This document shows positions 4,345 through 11,703 of a stretch of DNA of 32,000 bases, piece after piece. The stretch is from Planctomycetales bacterium (GTDB taxonomy: Bacteria > 4484-113 > JAFGCY01). Position 1 is the stretch's first letter; every line of letters begins with the position of its first letter. The notes beneath the pieces were generated by a model. It searched no databases, was not told the DNA's origin, and saw only the letters and a list, made by a program, of their open reading frames with translations. The DNA is taken from assembly GCA_022646745.1 (NCBI GenBank), contig CP060262.1:2250001-2282000 (forward strand), given 5' to 3'. A program made the position numbers and the translations under genes.

Positions 4345-5064
4345 TTATAGCGTGCCGGATACTGGATTTCCCCTGCTCCAGTTCCTGAAGGAAAGCAGCA
4401 GCAGGCACAACGCGACCAGGGAGAGTGGCCACATCCCCGGAATCGACAGGGCGATGATGCCGTAGAAGCCCAGGATTGACAGTGCTGCCATAACCGAGCG
4501 CCGAGGGACGACTGTGCGGCGCGGAAGCAACAGGGCCGGCAGCAGGCTGACAATGAACCAGCCGAGGAAGTTGTGCAGCGGCACGCCGTAGTAAGGGCCA
4601 CCAGCGGGCCATTGCCAATAACCCAGTGGTCCGCTGGCCAGTGGGTCGATCAGCAGGTCGGCACAGACCATCCAGAGTGAGACGGGGATGGCGCCAAGCA
4701 GGCGCTTGCCGGGTGATGCCAGCGAGGCGGCACCGGCCATCAGTACTCCCCAGGCGGCAGCAATGGAAAGTGGCACACCAAGGAGTTTCGGCCCGAGCGC
4801 TTCACCATAGTGGTAGCTGCCAAACAGGATGCCGGTATGCAGGCCCAGCAGCTCGGCGAGGAATCCGCCGAGGGCTGCCAGCAGCAGCCAGCGGCGCAGG
4901 GCAGGTGAGGCCGGCAGCAGGGCGATGGCGAAGGCGCACCACAGGAACAGCGGCCCGGCCCAGGCCGCGGCTGGTGAGGGGCTGTCGAACAGGGTGTAGT
5001 TGGCAATCCCACCGAGCCAGAGCAGGCCGTACAGGATCCACAGGCTGGTCTCAAGCGCCTTCAT
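4345..5064 (-). CDS. cruF: Carotenoid biosynthesis membrane protein, DUF422/Caroten_synth family (CruF-like carotenoid C-1,2 hydratase)
   Basis: The ORF track extends to 5451, but that extension overlaps the crtD-like gene in another frame and is Arg/Ala/Ser-rich junk. The internal ATG at 5062-5064 gives a 239-aa polytopic membrane protein. FLAELLGLHTGILFGSYHYGEALGPKLLGVPL and VPLHNFLGWF match my recollection of the DUF422 family. The start overlaps the crtD-like stop by 14 nt. Confidence 0.7.
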   Translation of the reverse strand: MKALETSLWILYGLLWLGGIANYTLFDSPSPAAAWAGPLFLWCAFAIALLPASPALRRWLLLAALGGFLAELLGLHTGILFGSYHYGEALGPKLLGVPLSIAAAWGVLMAGAASLASPGKRLLGAIPVSLWMVCADLLIDPLASGPLGYWQWPAGGPYYGVPLHNFLGWFIVSLLPALLLPRRTVVPRRSVMAALSILGFYGIIALSIPGMWPLSLVALCLLLLSFRNWSRGNPVSGTL

Positions 5065-6523
5065 ATCGCTCCACCAGTCTATCGACAATCGCCGCCGACA
5101 GCAGCACGGTCGGGGTGCCGCCGCCTGGATGCGAACTGCCGCCGACGCGGTACAGGCCGCGGACCCGGCGGTGGCGGTTGGCAGGGCGCAGGAAGGTGTT
5201 GCGCCAGCCGTGGCTGTCCTGGCCGTAGATCGCGCCGCCGGGCATGTCGTAGGCGGAGCTGATGCAGGCCGGTGTCCAGAGCTGCTCGACGCGGATCCGA
5301 TCAGTGATGTCCGGGAAGCCTGAGCGTTGCAGGCGCTGCAGCACCAGCCGGCGGGCACGCTGCGTCTTCTCCTCGTTCCAGTCGTCGTCAGCCGGGCAGT
5401 TGGCCATGATGAACAGGCTCTCGCAGTCCGGCGGGGCGAGCGTATTGTCACTAGCTGATGGCATGTTCACATAGACGGTCGGATCTTCCGGGAAACCTGG
5501 GCCGCCATTGGTAATGCCATTGAGCTGGTCGAACTCGAGGCTGTAGTTGTCACTGAAGTAAACGGAGTGGTGCGGCTGGGTCGGCAGCTTTCCGTCAATA
5601 CCGAGTAGCATCACGAAACCGCTCATGCTGCGCCTGTCCTCTGCTGGTGATTCACTCTCGCCCAGCAGCATCGGCAGCCTAGCACTGTCGCCGTTGAAGA
5701 TGACAATGTCACCGTCCAGCTCCATGCCGTCCTCCAGCGAGACTGCCGCTACACCGCCGTTGCGCTGGATGATGCGGCTGACACTGGCCCCGCAACGGAT
5801 CTCGACGCCGTACTGCAGCAGCAGTGCATGCAGGGCTTCCACCAGGCTGTAGAGCCCGCCCTGGAAGTACCATGCGCCATGCGCGTATTCGAGGTAGGGG
5901 ATTGCCAGCAGGGTGGCCGGTGCCTGGTAGGGTGAGCTGCCGACGTAGGTGGCATAGCGCCCGAAGAAGCTGATGAGGCGCTCGTCACGTACGAAGGAGC
6001 GTACCGTTGCATCGTAGTTTCCCCAGCCGTGGCGAAGCGGCATGTACTTCAGCGCGCCGGCCATGGAAGGGTCGGGTGGCTCGCCGGGGGTGTCTGCAAA
6101 GAAGGTGCGGCGGCTGAGTTCGAACAGCCGGCCGCCAAGCGCCATCAGCCGGTGGAAGCCCTCGATGTCATACGGGAATTCGCGTTGCAGCTCTGCCTGC
6201 AGCAGTGGCAGGGACTGTCCGTAGCGAAAGCTGCTGCCATCGGCGAAGCGGTAGCTGGCAACGGGGTCCAGCCGCCTGAGCTGCAACTGCCGATGAATGT
6301 CAGCGCCGGCCAGGCTGAACAGTTCGGCGAACACCTCCGGCATGGTAATCAGGGAGGGGCCGGTGTCGAAAGTGTAGCCATCCCGCTGCCAGCGGTTCAT
6401 CTTGCCGCCGATCCGCTCGCCGCGCTCCAGCAGAGTTACGGAATGTCCGCGAACGGCGAGGCGCAGTGCAGTGGCAATCCCGCCGAGGCCAGCGCCGACC
6501 ACCAGCACCCTGCCGGGCGCCAT
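5051..6523 (-). CDS. crtD: CrtI-family FAD-dependent carotenoid desaturase, probably CrtD-type (hydroxycarotenoid 3,4-desaturase)
   Basis: Start trimmed to ATG 6521-6523, so the Rossmann motif sits at the N-terminus (MAPGRVLVVGAGLGGIATALRLA). This ATG overlaps the upstream TGA as TGATG (6521-6525). CrtI-family signatures present: GGK....Q.DGYTFDTGPSLITMPEVFAELF and C-terminal GLYRVGGSSHPGGGTP. The CrtD subfamily call is an inference from it being the second CrtI-like copy and lying next to cruF. Confidence 0.75.
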   Translation of the reverse strand: MAPGRVLVVGAGLGGIATALRLAVRGHSVTLLERGERIGGKMNRWQRDGYTFDTGPSLITMPEVFAELFSLAGADIHRQLQLRRLDPVASYRFADGSSFRYGQSLPLLQAELQREFPYDIEGFHRLMALGGRLFELSRRTFFADTPGEPPDPSMAGALKYMPLRHGWGNYDATVRSFVRDERLISFFGRYATYVGSSPYQAPATLLAIPYLEYAHGAWYFQGGLYSLVEALHALLLQYGVEIRCGASVSRIIQRNGGVAAVSLEDGMELDGDIVIFNGDSARLPMLLGESESPAEDRRSMSGFVMLLGIDGKLPTQPHHSVYFSDNYSLEFDQLNGITNGGPGFPEDPTVYVNMPSASDNTLAPPDCESLFIMANCPADDDWNEEKTQRARRLVLQRLQRSGFPDITDRIRVEQLWTPACISSAYDMPGGAIYGQDSHGWRNTFLRPANRHRRVRGLYRVGGSSHPGGGTPTVLLSAAIVDRLVERYEGA

Positions 6524-7671
6524 CAGCTGGCCTCCGAGCCGGCAGCGTGGTAGGTGCGGCCTTTCCAGCGTACGCCGCGTCCCGTGACCGTACGCCACCA
6601 GGAGTTGAGGGCAATCGCCAGCAGCAGCAGTTCAGCCAGTGGATGCAGCAGGATGCTCCACAGCGGATGTCGGAAGCGCAGGCTGAGCACCAGCCGGCTG
6701 GCCAGTACCAGCAGGCTGGCTGTGAGCGCGGCTGGCAGCAAGGAGGAGTTGCCCGATGAGAGACTGCCAACGAGCAGGATGAAGGGCAGCAGGAACAGCG
6801 CGAGGTGGAACAGCAGGAAGGCGAAGAAGCCGAGGCTGTTGCCAAAGGCACTGTAGAAGTTCTTCTCGAAGCCGAGGAAGATTGCCGGCAGTGAGTCGTA
6901 CATGCGCACGCTGACCAGCCGGCTGCCATCGATGCAGCAGGACTGCAGGTTGATTTTGCGCCAGTGCCGGGCCAGTTTCGTGTCCTCGAACAGGGCGTCC
7001 CTGACAGCAGCATGGCCGCCGGCGTGGTGGTATTGCTCGCGGCGCAGCAGGATGCATGCCCCGTGCGCCAGTCCGAGTGATGCATCGTTGCGGCGGATAT
7101 AGGCCAGCGGCGCGGGATACATCGTGAAGGTGAGGAAGTTCAAGAGCGGCATCAGCAGCTGCTCCCAGAAGCCGAGCATCTGCATGCCGGGCCAGGCGGA
7201 AAGCATAGTGCAGTTGAAGTGGCGTGCGGTGGCCACGATCCGTCCGGCGGCCTGGGGGGCCAGCCGCGCATCTGCATCAAGGAACAGCATCCACTCGGAT
7301 GTAGCATTGTCAGCCAGCTGCTGGCAGGCCCAGCACTTGCCGGACCAGCCTTCAGGCAGCGGGCTGCCGCTCACGAGCCGGATGCGCGGGTCCAGTGTGG
7401 AGATGTTGCGCACTATCGCCGCCGTGTTGTCCTCGCTGTTGTCATCAAGCACAATCACTTCGCAGACCTGCTTGCCCTGCTGCAGCACGCTTTCAAGGCA
7501 GGCCTCGATGTTGTGCTTCTCATTGCGGGCCGGGATCAGCACTGTAATGAGGTCGCCAGCATCCTCATGCCGGGCAGTGCGTGCAGCTGGCCAGCGCAGG
7601 GCGGTCCAGCAGGCAAGACCGAGGAACAGCAGCAGGAGCAATGGCAACAGCCAGGGCAGCTCGAAACTCAT
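6523..7671 (-). CDS. Membrane-bound family 2 glycosyltransferase (CrtQ/CruC-like carotenoid glycosyltransferase candidate)
   Basis: 382 aa with an N-terminal TM helix. VLIPARNEKHNIEACLESV...VIVLDDNSEDNT and LFLDADA (DxD) indicate a GT-A fold GT2. Several C-terminal TM helices follow. The ATG overlaps the upstream stop as ATGA (7668-7671). Operon context is carotenoid genes. Confidence 0.8.
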   Translation of the reverse strand: MSFELPWLLPLLLLLFLGLACWTALRWPAARTARHEDAGDLITVLIPARNEKHNIEACLESVLQQGKQVCEVIVLDDNSEDNTAAIVRNISTLDPRIRLVSGSPLPEGWSGKCWACQQLADNATSEWMLFLDADARLAPQAAGRIVATARHFNCTMLSAWPGMQMLGFWEQLLMPLLNFLTFTMYPAPLAYIRRNDASLGLAHGACILLRREQYHHAGGHAAVRDALFEDTKLARHWRKINLQSCCIDGSRLVSVRMYDSLPAIFLGFEKNFYSAFGNSLGFFAFLLFHLALFLLPFILLVGSLSSGNSSLLPAALTASLLVLASRLVLSLRFRHPLWSILLHPLAELLLLAIALNSWWRTVTGRGVRWKGRTYHAAGSEAS

Positions 7672-8441
7672 CGGGCGACCTCCTGCGAGACCGGGATGTT
7701 GCTGAACAGCGCTTCACACAAGCCTTCAGGTGCCTCGCGGATCGGCAGGTGGCCGCAGGCCGGGATACTGGTGACAATCGCGTGTGGCCAGAGATCCTGC
7801 CACATCTGCACTGACTTCTTCACTGCGGCGAAAGTTCGCTCGCCGGTGGCGATGCGTACCTCGCAGTCCAGGGATGAGAAACGATCGATGCCGGGATGCG
7901 TGCCGAACATCTCGAGGTAGCGGTATGTCACCTCGTGGTCGACGGAGCGGAAGCTCTGGGTCATGTCGGTGGAACGGTCCTCCCGGCCGGAGGCTAGGAC
8001 ATTCGTCAGCCAGCGGCCGACCGGGTTGGCAAATGTGCTGTTGTAGGCATGGCGGCCGAAGTCACGCCTGAGGAACACGCGGAAGTAGCCGGGCAGGAAG
8101 GCGAATGGATCGACCAGCAGCAGGCGGCGAGGGGCCGGGTCCAGCCGCAGCGCGAGTTCACAGGCGAACAGCGCGCCGCTGCAGTTGCCGAGCAGGGTGT
8201 CAATCGGACGGCCTTCCAGCCGCGATGCTTCTTCATATTCGCGCTGCAATAGTTCGGCTACTGCCTCGAAGCTGTATTCAGGCGGAGGGGCCGTGTTGCC
8301 ATAGCCCGGCGGGTCAACCGAATACAGGCAGGTGCCGGGTCCGAGCTGCGCGACCAGGGGCAGGTAGCAGTTGCGGTCCTCTCCCCAGCCGGGGATCGCG
8401 AAGCAGGCGTGGGTGCCGTTGCCAATACGCTCAGCGGGCAT
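7668..8441 (-). CDS. Alpha/beta-hydrolase fold protein with Cys nucleophile elbow (G-N-C-S-G)
   Basis: 257 aa. IPGWG lies near the N-terminus in the oxyanion region. Nucleophile elbow is LLGNCSGALFA with Cys87 at nt 8181-8183. C-terminal GHLPIREAP has a candidate catalytic His231 at nt 7749-7751. The start overlaps the crtI stop by 11 nt. Confidence 0.75.
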   Translation of the reverse strand: MPAERIGNGTHACFAIPGWGEDRNCYLPLVAQLGPGTCLYSVDPPGYGNTAPPPEYSFEAVAELLQREYEEASRLEGRPIDTLLGNCSGALFACELALRLDPAPRRLLLVDPFAFLPGYFRVFLRRDFGRHAYNSTFANPVGRWLTNVLASGREDRSTDMTQSFRSVDHEVTYRYLEMFGTHPGIDRFSSLDCEVRIATGERTFAAVKKSVQMWQDLWPHAIVTSIPACGHLPIREAPEGLCEALFSNIPVSQEVAR

Positions 8442-9918
8442 GCTGCATCACCCTCTCCGCGGTCATCCGGCCACCGAGTGTCACGAGCGGCATGCCCGTG
8501 CCGGGGGTGGTGGAGGCACCGGTGTAGTACAGTCCCGGCAGGCGGCGGCTGTAGTTCTGCGCGCGCCAGGGGCCGAGCATCAGCAGGCGGTGGCTGGCGC
8601 CGAAGGCGCTGCCGTCGTACAGGCCGAAGTTGTCACGCCAGTCAGCCGGGGTGTAGCAGCGCTCCATTTCGATGTCGTCCGCGGAGATGTCACTGCCCTC
8701 CGCGCGCAGCCTGGCAATCACGAACTGCCTGAGGCGCTCGCGCTGGGCCTGCCAGTCCACATCACCAAGGCGACTTAACACCGGTGTCGGCAGCAGCACG
8801 AACATGGTGGACTTGCCCTCCGGTGCCAGCGAGGGGTCAGTCTCGCTGGCCAGCGAGACGTAGAAGGGCGGTTCACTGCTGATTGAGTGGCCCTGCATCA
8901 GTTGGTTAAAGGATTCGCGGTAGTGCTGCGGGAAGAAGATGCTGTGGTGCCCGAGCCCGCTCACCTTACGCTTGAGCCCCCAGTAGAAGGTCAGCACGCC
9001 GGGGGTCATCGCCATCCGCGCCGCTCGCTTGCCGCCGCCGTTGGCGGAGATCACTTCCGGGGCGAGCAGGGTGTCCGTGGTTGGCACGTCCACGTTGCTG
9101 ACGATTGCATCGGCTGCCAGCAGGCTGCCGTCCGCCAGTTCAACAGCCCGGCCCCGTCCACCGTTCTCGCGGATGCGCTTCACCTCGCAGGAGGTGCGGA
9201 TCTCCACTCCGTTGTCAGCAGCCAACCGGGTCATCGCCTCCACGAGGGCGTAGATTCCGCCGCGCGGCAGCCAGAGGCCGTAGTTCAGTTCCCCGAAGGG
9301 CAGGATCTCGAACAGGCCCGGCAGGTCGAAGGGCGAGCCGCCGAGGTACATCGCGTAGCTGCCGAGCGCCTGCTTGATGCGCTCACTGCGGAAGGACGTG
9401 CCGAGCTGCCCATACACGCTGCGCTGCAGTCCGAGCCCCAGTAGCTCATTGAGGCGCAGGGCGCCGAGCCATCTGAGCGGATTGTCAGCATTGGAAGTCA
9501 CCAGCCTGTCGAAGCTCAGCCTGTAGTTACGCCCGGCGCGCTCCAGCCAGGCGCTGAGGCGCGGTCCGACTGAGGGGTCGAAGCGTTCGAACTCGCTGCG
9601 CAGGCGGTCGAAGCGGCTGGAAAGCTGCAGGCTTTCTCCGTCCGGCCAGTGGAAGCGGATGCCGGGCTCGACTTCCAGCAGCTCGAGCTGTTCATGCAGG
9701 TCGGAACCGTTGTCAGCGAACAGTTGCTCGAACACCCAGGGATAGTTCAGCAGCGAGGGGCCGGTGTCGAAGCGGAAGCCGTCCTGCTCGATCAGGTTTG
9801 CCCGGCCGCCGGTGCCCGCATTCTTTTCCAGCAGCGTGACTTTGCAGCCCATGCGGGCCAGGTGGGTGGCGGCGGACAGGCCTCCGAGGCCTCCACCGAT
9901 CACTATCACATTTGTCAT
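8431..9918 (-). CDS. crtI: Phytoene desaturase (CrtI family)
   Basis: Start trimmed to ATG 9916-9918 (MTNVIVIGGGLGGLSAATHLARMG, GxGxxG at the N-terminus), overlapping the crtB TGA as TGATG (9916-9920). Signatures: GGRA.....DGFRFDTGPSLLNYP..FEQLF and C-terminal GLYYTGASTTPGTGMP. Confidence 0.85.
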   Translation of the reverse strand: MTNVIVIGGGLGGLSAATHLARMGCKVTLLEKNAGTGGRANLIEQDGFRFDTGPSLLNYPWVFEQLFADNGSDLHEQLELLEVEPGIRFHWPDGESLQLSSRFDRLRSEFERFDPSVGPRLSAWLERAGRNYRLSFDRLVTSNADNPLRWLGALRLNELLGLGLQRSVYGQLGTSFRSERIKQALGSYAMYLGGSPFDLPGLFEILPFGELNYGLWLPRGGIYALVEAMTRLAADNGVEIRTSCEVKRIRENGGRGRAVELADGSLLAADAIVSNVDVPTTDTLLAPEVISANGGGKRAARMAMTPGVLTFYWGLKRKVSGLGHHSIFFPQHYRESFNQLMQGHSISSEPPFYVSLASETDPSLAPEGKSTMFVLLPTPVLSRLGDVDWQAQRERLRQFVIARLRAEGSDISADDIEMERCYTPADWRDNFGLYDGSAFGASHRLLMLGPWRAQNYSRRLPGLYYTGASTTPGTGMPLVTLGGRMTAERVMQHAR

Positions 9919-10916
9919 CAGAGCAACCCCGTCATGGCCAGCGGGACACGCCAGTACTTGCTGGCCGGCAGCACGGAGAACTTGCGCGCACCGGACACGC
10001 TCAGGCGGGTGTCCAGCCGGCCTTCTGAATCGAGGATCATGCCGTTGAGCAGCGAATAGACATTGATGCAGCACTCGATCGCCACCCGGCTGTCGCGGCT
10101 GAAGCTGGCAACCCCGGCCTGGGCCCGGGCGTATCCTTGCTGGGCATGCTGGGCCAGCTCGATGCGGGCCTGCACGAGGTCGGCATCACTCAGTTCCGCC
10201 GCAGCGATGCCGTCCGTCCAGCCGGACTGCGGCAGCATCGACAGCGGGATGTAGATCCGCCCGCGTTCGCGGTCATCCGCCACGTCGCGGGCGAAGTTGG
10301 TTAGCTGCAGGGCGATTGCCAGTTCCCGGGCGCAGTCCAGCGCGGCACTGAAGTTGCCACTGCCGCTGGAGCCATATACATATGTGAGGAAGTAGCCGAC
10401 CACAGTGGCACTGCCGTAGATGTAGCGCTCGACAAGGTCTTCCATGGTCTGGAACTTGCGCGGCTGGAGGTCACTCTCCATTGCATCAAGGAAGGAGCGG
10501 TAGTACTCGCGCGGGATGCCGAGCCCGTTGACAAGCTTGGCGAAGACGGCGATGTAGGGATTGCAGCCCAGCTCCACGGCCTGCTGCAGCCCGCTGCAGC
10601 CCAGTGCCCGTTCGTAGTCCCGACGCCAGGCTGCCATCTCCGTCTCGACATCGATCCCCTGGGGGGCAAAGGTGTCAACCAGTTCGTCGGGGTAGCGCAC
10701 GGCGGCGTAGATCAGTTCCACCTGCCGGCGCTTGTGCGGTGGCAGGAAGCGGGTGACGAGATAGAAGCTGGTGCTGTAGGCACGCAGCACTCCGCGGGAT
10801 GACTCGGCTACGAGCTGCATGGCTTCCTGCTCATCCGCGGCCGAAAGCACCGTCTCGGCAAGAATGGCCGCGCGACTGCGCCATGAGACGATTGACCAGA
10901 CCTGTTGTGCTGCCAT
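9918..10916 (-). CDS. crtB: Phytoene/squalene synthase family protein (CrtB)
   Basis: STSFYLVTRFLPPHKRRQVELIYAAVRYPDELVD is the first Asp-rich motif (DELVD). LQLTNFARDVADDRERGRIYIP is the second Asp-rich region. Start chosen at ATG 10914-10916 because GGGGA lies 6 nt upstream. ATGs at 10994 and 11018 remain possible alternatives. Confidence 0.85.
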   Translation of the reverse strand: MAAQQVWSIVSWRSRAAILAETVLSAADEQEAMQLVAESSRGVLRAYSTSFYLVTRFLPPHKRRQVELIYAAVRYPDELVDTFAPQGIDVETEMAAWRRDYERALGCSGLQQAVELGCNPYIAVFAKLVNGLGIPREYYRSFLDAMESDLQPRKFQTMEDLVERYIYGSATVVGYFLTYVYGSSGSGNFSAALDCARELAIALQLTNFARDVADDRERGRIYIPLSMLPQSGWTDGIAAAELSDADLVQARIELAQHAQQGYARAQAGVASFSRDSRVAIECCINVYSLLNGMILDSEGRLDTRLSVSGARKFSVLPASKYWRVPLAMTGLL

Positions 10917-11085
10917 CTGATTTCCCCGCTGGCCTTCGCGCTGCTGGATAATGCGCTGCGCTGGCCCAGATCGCACCGGGAACGGGAGGACCATTTGCCC
11001 GCCCGCTTCCTGGCACATCAGATGCTATTGGGCAAACCTTGCGCTTCTGAGGCGGGAGTCTGGTGAAAGTATGGAGAAAGTCCGC

Positions 11086-11703
11086 TCAGGCAGCGACAGT
11101 GCGGCTGGCAATCACAAGGCACATCGTCGAATTGGCAGTGGCGTGCAGCAGCCAGGGAGCCAGGATGGAACCGCTGCTGATGCGCAGCCAGCCGGCGTAC
11201 AGGCCGCCCGCGAAGATCACAATGAGCAGCGGCCAGGCCTGCGGTGCGATCGCCAGCAGGATGAGGTGCGGCAGCAGGAAGATGAGCGCCTGCAGGATGT
11301 TTGCCCAGGGCGCTTTCACCCGGCGTGATAGGCTGCCGGCTATCAGGCCGCGGAAGAACAACTCCTCGCAGAAACCGGTCTGCAGGAATCCGTATAGCAG
11401 CGCCAGCAGGAAGGTCAGCGGCTTGATCCCGGCTCCGGCGAATCCGGCCATTGCATTGCCTTCATGTGTCATCAGCGAAAGGTCGAAGGGAACTAGGAAC
11501 AGGATGATCGCAACAGCCAGGCTGGCGATGGCGGCCTGCAGCAGGTAACGAGTCTCGCCAATGCAGAGACCGGCACGTTCAAGCACTGCCCTGATTCCAC
11601 GCTTGTGCTTCAGGCTGTGGAACAGGGCATAGATGCCGAGCGGGATGCCCGCCAGCACAATCAGGTTCACGACAGCGGTAGAGATAGCCTTGCTCGTGTC
11701 CAT
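11086..11703 (-). CDS. CPBP family intramembrane glutamic endopeptidase (CAAX/Abi-like)
   Basis: 205-aa polytopic membrane protein. Motif 1 is EELFFRG, motif 2 is FLLPH (FxxxH), motif 3 is LLHATANS. GGGGGA SD lies 5 nt upstream of ATG 11703. Confidence 0.85.
   Translation of the reverse strand: MDTSKAISTAVVNLIVLAGIPLGIYALFHSLKHKRGIRAVLERAGLCIGETRYLLQAAIASLAVAIILFLVPFDLSLMTHEGNAMAGFAGAGIKPLTFLLALLYGFLQTGFCEELFFRGLIAGSLSRRVKAPWANILQALIFLLPHLILLAIAPQAWPLLIVIFAGGLYAGWLRISSGSILAPWLLHATANSTMCLVIASRTVAA

Follow-up and report, generated by a model that had tools for sequence, protein, structure and literature searches.

A cysteine-type alpha/beta-hydrolase encoded in sugar-bearing carotenoid operons of many bacteria: a candidate acyltransferase for carotenoid glycosides

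Introduction

Carotenoid glycoside esters stiffen and protect bacterial membranes, and the step that acylates them has so far been assigned to LPLAT-type enzymes (CruD, Orf9) and to the staphylococcal enzyme CrtO. CruD is taken to be of the LPLAT type; the LPLAT fold is unrelated to that of the alpha/beta-hydrolases and involves no covalent cysteine intermediate. PhaC, by contrast, forms an acyl-cysteine from a coenzyme A (CoA) thioester and hands the acyl group to an acceptor. Here we describe a Cys-type alpha/beta-hydrolase, denoted ABH for both gene and protein (P0001), that is encoded within a carotenoid operon on a stretch of 32,000 nucleotides ('the window') from a Planctomycetales bacterium (assembly GCA_022646745.1, contig CP060262.1, positions 2,250,001 to 2,282,000), and we weigh the roles that it may play in the pathway.

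In the paradigm for glycoside esters, the sequence CruF, CruC, CruD makes the product; this has been shown in Escherichia coli for Chloroflexus and proposed for Rhodothermus and Thermomicrobium roseum (PMC13704108, PMC7414004, PMC2615216). T. roseum produces acylated oscillol diglycosides from a cluster that is free of a cyclase gene and that encodes a CruF-acyltransferase fusion (PMC2615216). In Myxococcus xanthus, the gene before carA/carH is orf9, the product of which is described as a PlsC-type 'possible acyltransferase' (PMC8156234, PMC9304148). Among enzymes with a catalytic cysteine, BAAT forms a covalent acyl-cysteine from acyl-CoA (PMC6934887), and the NcmC-type cyclases have a Cys-Asp-His triad and an acyl-cysteine intermediate, the C89S variant of the homologue BpdE being inactive (PMC10956176).

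Results

Gene order and co-occurrence

As judged from Pfam and NCBIfam matches, the operon of the window runs crtB-crtI-ABH-GT2-crtD-cruF (Table 1). A scan of one genome per species returned 147 loci that encode a relative of ABH, and the gene context was analysed on the best 80. These 80 loci are labelled as Planctomycetales, Acidobacteriota (Blastocatellia, Pyrinomonadaceae, Bryobacterales), Dehalococcoidia/SAR202 (with the cultured Ca. Lucifugimonas marina JH545, which has the full cluster at locus L071, among the carriers), Hydrogenedentota, Verrucomicrobiota, Myxococcota and others. The order crtB-crtI-ABH-(crtE)-GT2-crtD-cruF is shared by loci whose labels cover at least six phyla. Of 70 loci that could be tested, 66 have crtI directly upstream of ABH, and in 28 the end of crtI extends to the start of ABH. 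Of 62 loci testable for GT2, 54 have it within 2.6 kb downstream; in 42 of these, a gene for a polyprenyl synthase (crtE) separates the two. The gene that fills this gap in acidobacterial loci had been a candidate acyltransferase and was identified as crtE; its top score there is as a farnesyl diphosphate (FPP) synthase. Some clusters are split, with crtB-crtI-ABH-crtE separate from GT2-crtD-cruF and GT2 on another contig of the same genome. A Myxococcota locus has the order crtE-crtI-crtB-ABH-carH-like, such that ABH follows crtB there.

Co-occurrence was followed in 351 genomes from the class of an acidobacterial carrier, a set that includes one unpublished genome (G358) on which no claim rests. 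ABH is present in 62 of these genomes, and the orthologous GT2 (E <= 1e-75) is present in the identical 62. By contrast, a CrtI-family gene scores above cut-off in 169 genomes, more than 100 of which have no ABH. ABH is thus tied to a particular glycoside cluster and is not a general partner of CrtI or of carotenoid synthesis at large. Five weaker GT2 matches in ABH-negative genomes were considered as alternative, LPLAT-containing clusters and rejected, there being no crt genes around them. The synteny across loci labelled as several phyla, together with the perfect co-occurrence with the GT2 of the cluster, places ABH in the carotenoid pathway, as the first-pass annotation of this DNA had argued; many bacteria, most of them uncultured, carry ABH as a constant part of an operon for a sugar-bearing carotenoid. 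The closest metagenome-assembled genome (MAG) bears the NCBI label 'Planctomycetales', yet the phylum of the window is represented by only 22 species in the genome collection, of which three have the complete cluster, ABH included, and two others just a divergent paralogue.

Fold and catalytic residues

ABH matches Pfam Abhydrolase_6 (PF12697; E 5e-17, 63.6 bits against a cut-off of 26.3), and its only other Pfam matches are to Abhydrolase_1 and, weakly, to Thioesterase. All of its NCBIfam matches fall far below cut-off, with BioH (TIGR01738) at 30.1 bits against 206.95. An AlphaFold2 model built on 36 homologues has a mean predicted local distance difference test score of 91, a canonical sheet and a helical cap at residues 118-190. 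In this model, strand 82-86 is followed immediately by Cys87 and then by helix 89-99, an arrangement that puts Cys87 on the canonical nucleophile elbow; Asp111 and His231 likewise sit at the loop positions expected of them. Fold searches (Foldseek on the PDB and a wide VIA-align search) returned small esterases, BioH, RsbQ, D14/KAI2 and type II thioesterases at Z 20-23, with the top matches at Z 22-23 over ~240 residues to many solved members of the superfamily. These fold searches, a means of subfamily placement suggested at the outset, gave generic small hydrolases only, and no specific family stood out. Likewise, ABH falls only in generic 'alpha/beta fold hydrolase' clusters of a protein atlas. 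NcmC, PhaC and the dienelactone hydrolases lie outside the top 50 fold matches, which excludes nothing; the dienelactone hydrolase family also gave no Pfam match at E <= 0.01, a result that leaves a distant relation possible.

None of the 120 homologues compared has a substitution at Gly85, Asn86, Cys87, Gly89, Asp111 or His231. Six of them have Ala or Gly in place of Ser88, and Glu201, at the usual position of the acid after beta7, varies (Glu, Ala or Gly). Conservation and placement of the motif are far beyond chance. In the family profile alignment, Ser82 of BioH stands opposite Cys87, and in a pairwise alignment so does the catalytic cysteine of NcmC ('GFCAG' and 'FDPE' in NcmC against 'GNCSG' and 'VDPF' in ABH). 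Because both of these nucleophiles align with Cys87, the predicted nucleophile is Cys87 and not Ser88, the residue that the first-pass annotation had named as the possible occupant of this position in an ordinary esterase. The invariance of the three residues and the alignment of the NcmC Cys and Asp with Cys87 and Asp111 indicate a predicted Cys87-Asp111-His231 triad, in which the acid follows beta6; such an arrangement is thioesterase-like and is not that of PhaC. The earlier description of ABH as 'PhaC-like' consequently holds for the G-x-C-x-G box alone. With 257 residues, no PhaC_N domain and the acid after beta6 instead of beta7, ABH is not a PhaC.

The wider clade keeps the cysteine (G-x-C-x-G, D/E-P-F, G-H) down to about E 1e-7, with Asp or Glu at the acid position, and Ser enzymes appear only beyond that point. 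The family is narrow, with 226 cluster representatives at E <= 1e-3 among 1.84 billion. A search for fused (Rosetta-stone) forms gave a sole candidate, a 453-residue protein that has no extra domain and probably results from a miscalled start. A paralogue found in genomes G017 and G016 (L085:8025-9842 and L086:8092-9907) has Cys-Asp-His, lacks His169 of the carotenoid-linked subfamily and is encoded directly upstream of a DUF2461 gene.

Searches for a known acyltransferase

No LPLAT acyltransferase of the CruD/Orf9 type was found in the cluster or among the conserved flanking families of the checked loci, and no known type of carotenoid-glycoside acyltransferase lies in the cluster. The genome of the window, a single 4.11-Mb contig that is 93.5% complete, contains one PF03279 and two PF01553 genes, none of which is within 1 Mb of the cluster; it also contains no lycopene cyclase of the CrtY/CrtL type (PF05834). 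Five other carriers have no PF01553 gene near the cluster. The two Dehalococcoidia genomes among them, of 3.1 and 3.5 Mb, are one complete genome and one MAG chromosome; each encodes only one PF01553 member, at a great distance from the cluster. The CruF open reading frames of the loci mostly span 223-340 residues and are thus too short for a fused acyltransferase domain, so that a CruF fusion of the T. roseum type is not present. A search for the staphylococcal CrtO family (PF18927) gave no match, but its control also matched nowhere, making this search uninformative. The gene families conserved next to ABH in the 80 loci include no polyketide synthase or nonribosomal peptide synthetase (PKS/NRPS) family. 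When the operon is mapped onto the CruF-CruC-CruD scheme, every gene except ABH has an assigned step, and acylation is the only step left unfilled.

Operon structure and flanking genes

The ATG of ABH (8441-8439) and the TGA stop of crtI (8433-8431) produce an 11-nt overlap, with a Shine-Dalgarno-like run, GGAGAGGG, ~9 nt upstream of the ATG. At the other end, the TGA of ABH (7670-7668) and the ATG of GT2 (7671-7669) form an ATGA overlap. The elbow is encoded by 'ggc aac tgc agc ggc', which reads Gly85-Asn86-Cys87-Ser88-Gly89. Three further junctions, TGATG at 9920-9916 and again at 6525-6521 and an overlap of 14 nt at 5051-5064, establish where crtI (9918), the crtD-like gene (6523) and cruF (5064) really start. 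All of these features, including the translational interlock of ABH with crtI and GT2 and the G-N-C-S-G box with Cys87 at 8181-8183, can be read in the DNA just as first described. A hidden N-terminal domain in cruF was considered and rejected: the 368-residue open reading frame is over-extended, and the real start is the ATG at 5064.

Table 1. Genes of the carotenoid operon and predicted catalytic codons of ABH, in window coordinates.
Feature	Position	Strand	Basis
crtB-like gene of the phytoene/squalene synthase family; start codon uncertain	9918..11018	-	Pfam SQS_PSY, E 7e-49
crtI (phytoene desaturase family)	8431..9918	-	NCBIfam crtI_fam, 415 bits, above cut-off
ABH (P0001, 257 aa)	7668..8441	-	Open reading frame and translation; Pfam Abhydrolase_6; AlphaFold2 model
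Cys87 codon (tgc), predicted nucleophile, G-N-C-S-G elbow	8181..8183	-	Invariant in 120/120; aligned to BioH Ser82 and NcmC Cys
Asp111 codon, predicted triad acid, directly after strand beta6 (LLLVD-PFA)	8109..8111	-	Invariant in 120/120; aligned to NcmC 'VVFDPE'
His231 codon, predicted triad base (G-H-L-P)	7749..7751	-	Invariant in 120/120; after strand 222-226 in the model
GT2 glycosyltransferase (CruG/HpnB-like)	6523..7671	-	Pfam Glycos_transf_2, E 8e-26; NCBIfam HpnB 189 and CruG 142 bits, both below cut-off
crtD-like 3,4-desaturase (CrtI family)	5051..6523	-	NCBIfam crtI_fam, 337 bits; best equivalog CrtD, 300 bits, below cut-off
cruF-like carotenoid 1,2-hydratase, 239 aa from ATG at 5064	4345..5064	-	Pfam Caroten_synth, E 2e-28; NCBIfam CruF families below cut-off

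The match of GT2 to CruG, a 2'-O-glycosyltransferase, is full-length at 142 bits and below cut-off. The best NCBIfam matches of 'crtB' and GT2 are to the hopanoid families HpnD and HpnB instead of CrtB and CruG, all of them below cut-off. Going by these matches and by the FPP-synthase-like crtE of the acidobacterial loci, the carotenoid chain may be either C40 or C30. A CruF homologue in a MAG labelled Planctomycetales (L002:13396-14625 (+)) has a C-terminal SRPBCC (Polyketide_cyc) lipid-binding domain, for which most other CruF open reading frames, at 223-340 residues, have no room. Just upstream of crtB and on the same strand, the window encodes a CPBP/Rce1-like intramembrane protease (11086-11703 (-)), a gene that also occurs in the closest relative (L001:1870-2469; 59% identity).

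Several further genes recur in the flanks of the 80 loci. A gene for a CarH-like MerR/B12-binding regulator stands beside the cluster in 22 (for example, L006:3435-4412 (-) and L062:10707-11651 (+)), a photolyase-domain gene is near it in 24, and a gene for an NAD-epimerase/DUF1731 (YfcH-like) protein lies upstream of it in 22 (for example, L004:148-1086 (+)). Their conservation suggests that the pigment cluster is light-responsive and protective. An epimerase/DUF1731 gene (L045:6355-7278 (+)) also adjoins an 'orphan' ABH in a Gemmatimonadota MAG, where no crt genes are nearby.

Discussion

The likeliest role of ABH, which we put forward tentatively and with somewhat less than even confidence, is that of an acyl-cysteine acyltransferase that esterifies the carotenoid glycoside. 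This reading draws on ABH being the one unassigned gene and acylation the one unfilled step, and on the precedents for acyl transfer by Cys-Asp-His enzymes. In the scheme that we propose, lycopene would be the product of CrtB and CrtI; it would then be hydrated at its ends by CruF, desaturated at the 3,4 position by CrtD and given a sugar by GT2. ABH, a soluble protein, would act late: a fatty acyl group from a thioester donor (acyl carrier protein (ACP)- or CoA-bound) would be loaded onto Cys87 and transferred to a hydroxyl of the sugar, so that the end product would be a fatty-acid ester of the carotenoid glycoside. Here we infer the acyl donor, the acceptor and the transfer, as opposed to hydrolysis, of the acyl group. 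ABH would then stand in for the unrelated LPLAT-type enzymes CruD and Orf9. One positional swap is consistent with such a replacement: in the Myxococcota locus, ABH occupies the place just before the carH-like regulator gene, which is the slot of orf9 in Myxococcus xanthus.

Several points weigh against a glycoside acyltransferase. The pigments of ABH carriers may not be acylated at all; several bacterial carotenoid glycosides are not, and enzymes that only hydrolyse, dienelactone hydrolase among them, can have a Cys triad too. Two genomes from the same family as that of the window (G016 and G017, 93-94% complete) contain only the divergent paralogue, and no crtI, GT2 or cruF was found in them. 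Two MAGs (G005 and G028) have ABH with no crtI, GT2 or cruF found, and in a third (G027), which has ABH, crtI-crtD and cruF, no GT2 was found; as MAGs, these three may be incomplete. Moreover, the tightest physical link of ABH is to crtI and not to GT2, and in split clusters (L006, L010, L012, L020) ABH stays with crtB-crtI-crtE and not with GT2. This placement, together with the overlap or abutment of ABH and crtI in most loci, favours an alternative in which ABH works with the early enzymes, as a partner of CrtI or CrtB or as a handler of a prenyl intermediate, and not on the glycoside. However, the same-class genomes with CrtI-family genes and no ABH number more than 100, ABH follows crtB and not crtI in the Myxococcota locus, and no chemistry is known for a Cys triad on phytoene or lycopene; we judge an early function to be the least probable of the roles considered.

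A better contender, although still unlikely, is a thioesterase or esterase with a hydrolytic Cys87, which would supply free fatty acid, deacylate the pigment or edit a carrier protein. The proteins closest to ABH in sequence and fold (BioH, small esterases, type II thioesterases) are hydrolases, its weak match to Pfam Thioesterase becomes stronger in paralogues, and the presence of paralogues in genomes that have no carotenoid genes implies that the clade is not restricted to pigments. Yet a seven-gene biosynthetic cassette offers no obvious place for pure hydrolysis and includes no acyltransferase whose product ABH could trim, and the strict use of Cys, never Ser, throughout the clade fits thioester exchange better than plain hydrolysis. 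Less probable than hydrolysis is the use of an acyl-cysteine for a carotenoid modification that has no known enzyme, be it the indirect installation of a 2-hydroxyl, the addition of an unusual acyl group or a tie to a membrane lipid or protein; this would amount to a new class of carotenoid-tailoring enzyme across many phyla. Very unlikely, in our estimate, is some other tailoring step without a known enzyme, mainly formation of the 2-hydroxyl of oscillol/myxol-type 2-O-glycosides or else attachment of a non-fatty-acyl group or a link to another molecule. With cruF, crtD and a CruG-like GT2 but no CrtY/CrtL-type cyclase (PF05834), the gene content is what one would expect for an acyclic glycoside of the oscillol type; ABH is the sole unassigned gene of the cluster, and no 2,2'-hydroxylase had been identified in T. 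roseum (PMC2615216). The invariant nucleophile nevertheless points to covalent acyl chemistry. Furthermore, no chemical precedent is known for a cofactor-free Cys-Asp-His enzyme of the hydrolase fold that hydroxylates a polyene at an allylic position, and the matches include no cyanobacterial member even though cyanobacteria make myxol 2'-glycosides.

Full-text literature searches returned no description of the ABH family or of an alpha/beta-hydrolase in carotenoid clusters, and none of Lucifugimonas pigments. If ABH does esterify the glycoside, then a second, unrelated type of enzyme acylates carotenoid glycosides, by way of a covalent acyl-cysteine. Such an activity would explain the only gene without an assigned step in a pigment cassette known from soil Acidobacteriota, marine SAR202 and Hydrogenedentota, among others, and would offer pathway engineers a small soluble acyltransferase.

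Comparison with known systems

In genetic setting, ABH resembles CruD (Chlorobaculum, Chloroflexus, Rhodothermus, Salinibacter), Orf9 and the T. roseum fusion, in that all are encoded beside CruF and a GT2; those enzymes esterify the sugar of the glycoside, a role that ABH may share. Orf9 is annotated as PlsC-type, whereas ABH has no LPLAT match (PF01553/PF03279), so the likeness would be one of function and not of membership.

BAAT and PhaC provide the mechanistic model for the proposed reaction: both have the alpha/beta-hydrolase fold and a Cys-Asp-His triad and pass an acyl group from a CoA thioester through an acyl-cysteine to an acceptor. Neither has a detectable sequence relationship to ABH beyond the superfamily. 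PhaC is also about twice as long (~350-600 residues), has an N-terminal domain and carries its acid after beta7, and ABH gives no match to any PhaC family in Pfam or NCBIfam.

Closer relationships are found elsewhere. Among the thioesterase-like Dieckmann cyclases NcmC, TrdC and BpdE (PDB 6e6t), NcmC is the best match of ABH to a solved structure by single-sequence search (E 3e-6), in an alignment that spans only ABH residues 20-113; NcmC has a Cys-Asp-His triad, as is predicted for ABH, and its Cys likewise occupies the elbow while its Asp immediately follows beta6. NcmC-type enzymes, however, act on PKS/NRPS carrier-bound chains and form C-C bonds, whereas the neighbours of ABH are crt genes in most loci. 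BioH, the pimeloyl-ACP methyl ester esterase (PDB 4nmw, 4etw), ranks first both among the profile matches (E 6e-14) and in Foldseek, and has the same size and the same cap architecture. It works on acyl-ACP and is the nearest relative of ABH by profile and fold, but it differs in having Ser82 as nucleophile and Asp after beta7; ABH scores below the TIGR01738 cut-off and is not in a biotin context. The nearest relatives of ABH are the BioH-type small hydrolases and the thioesterase-like Cys-Asp-His enzyme NcmC.

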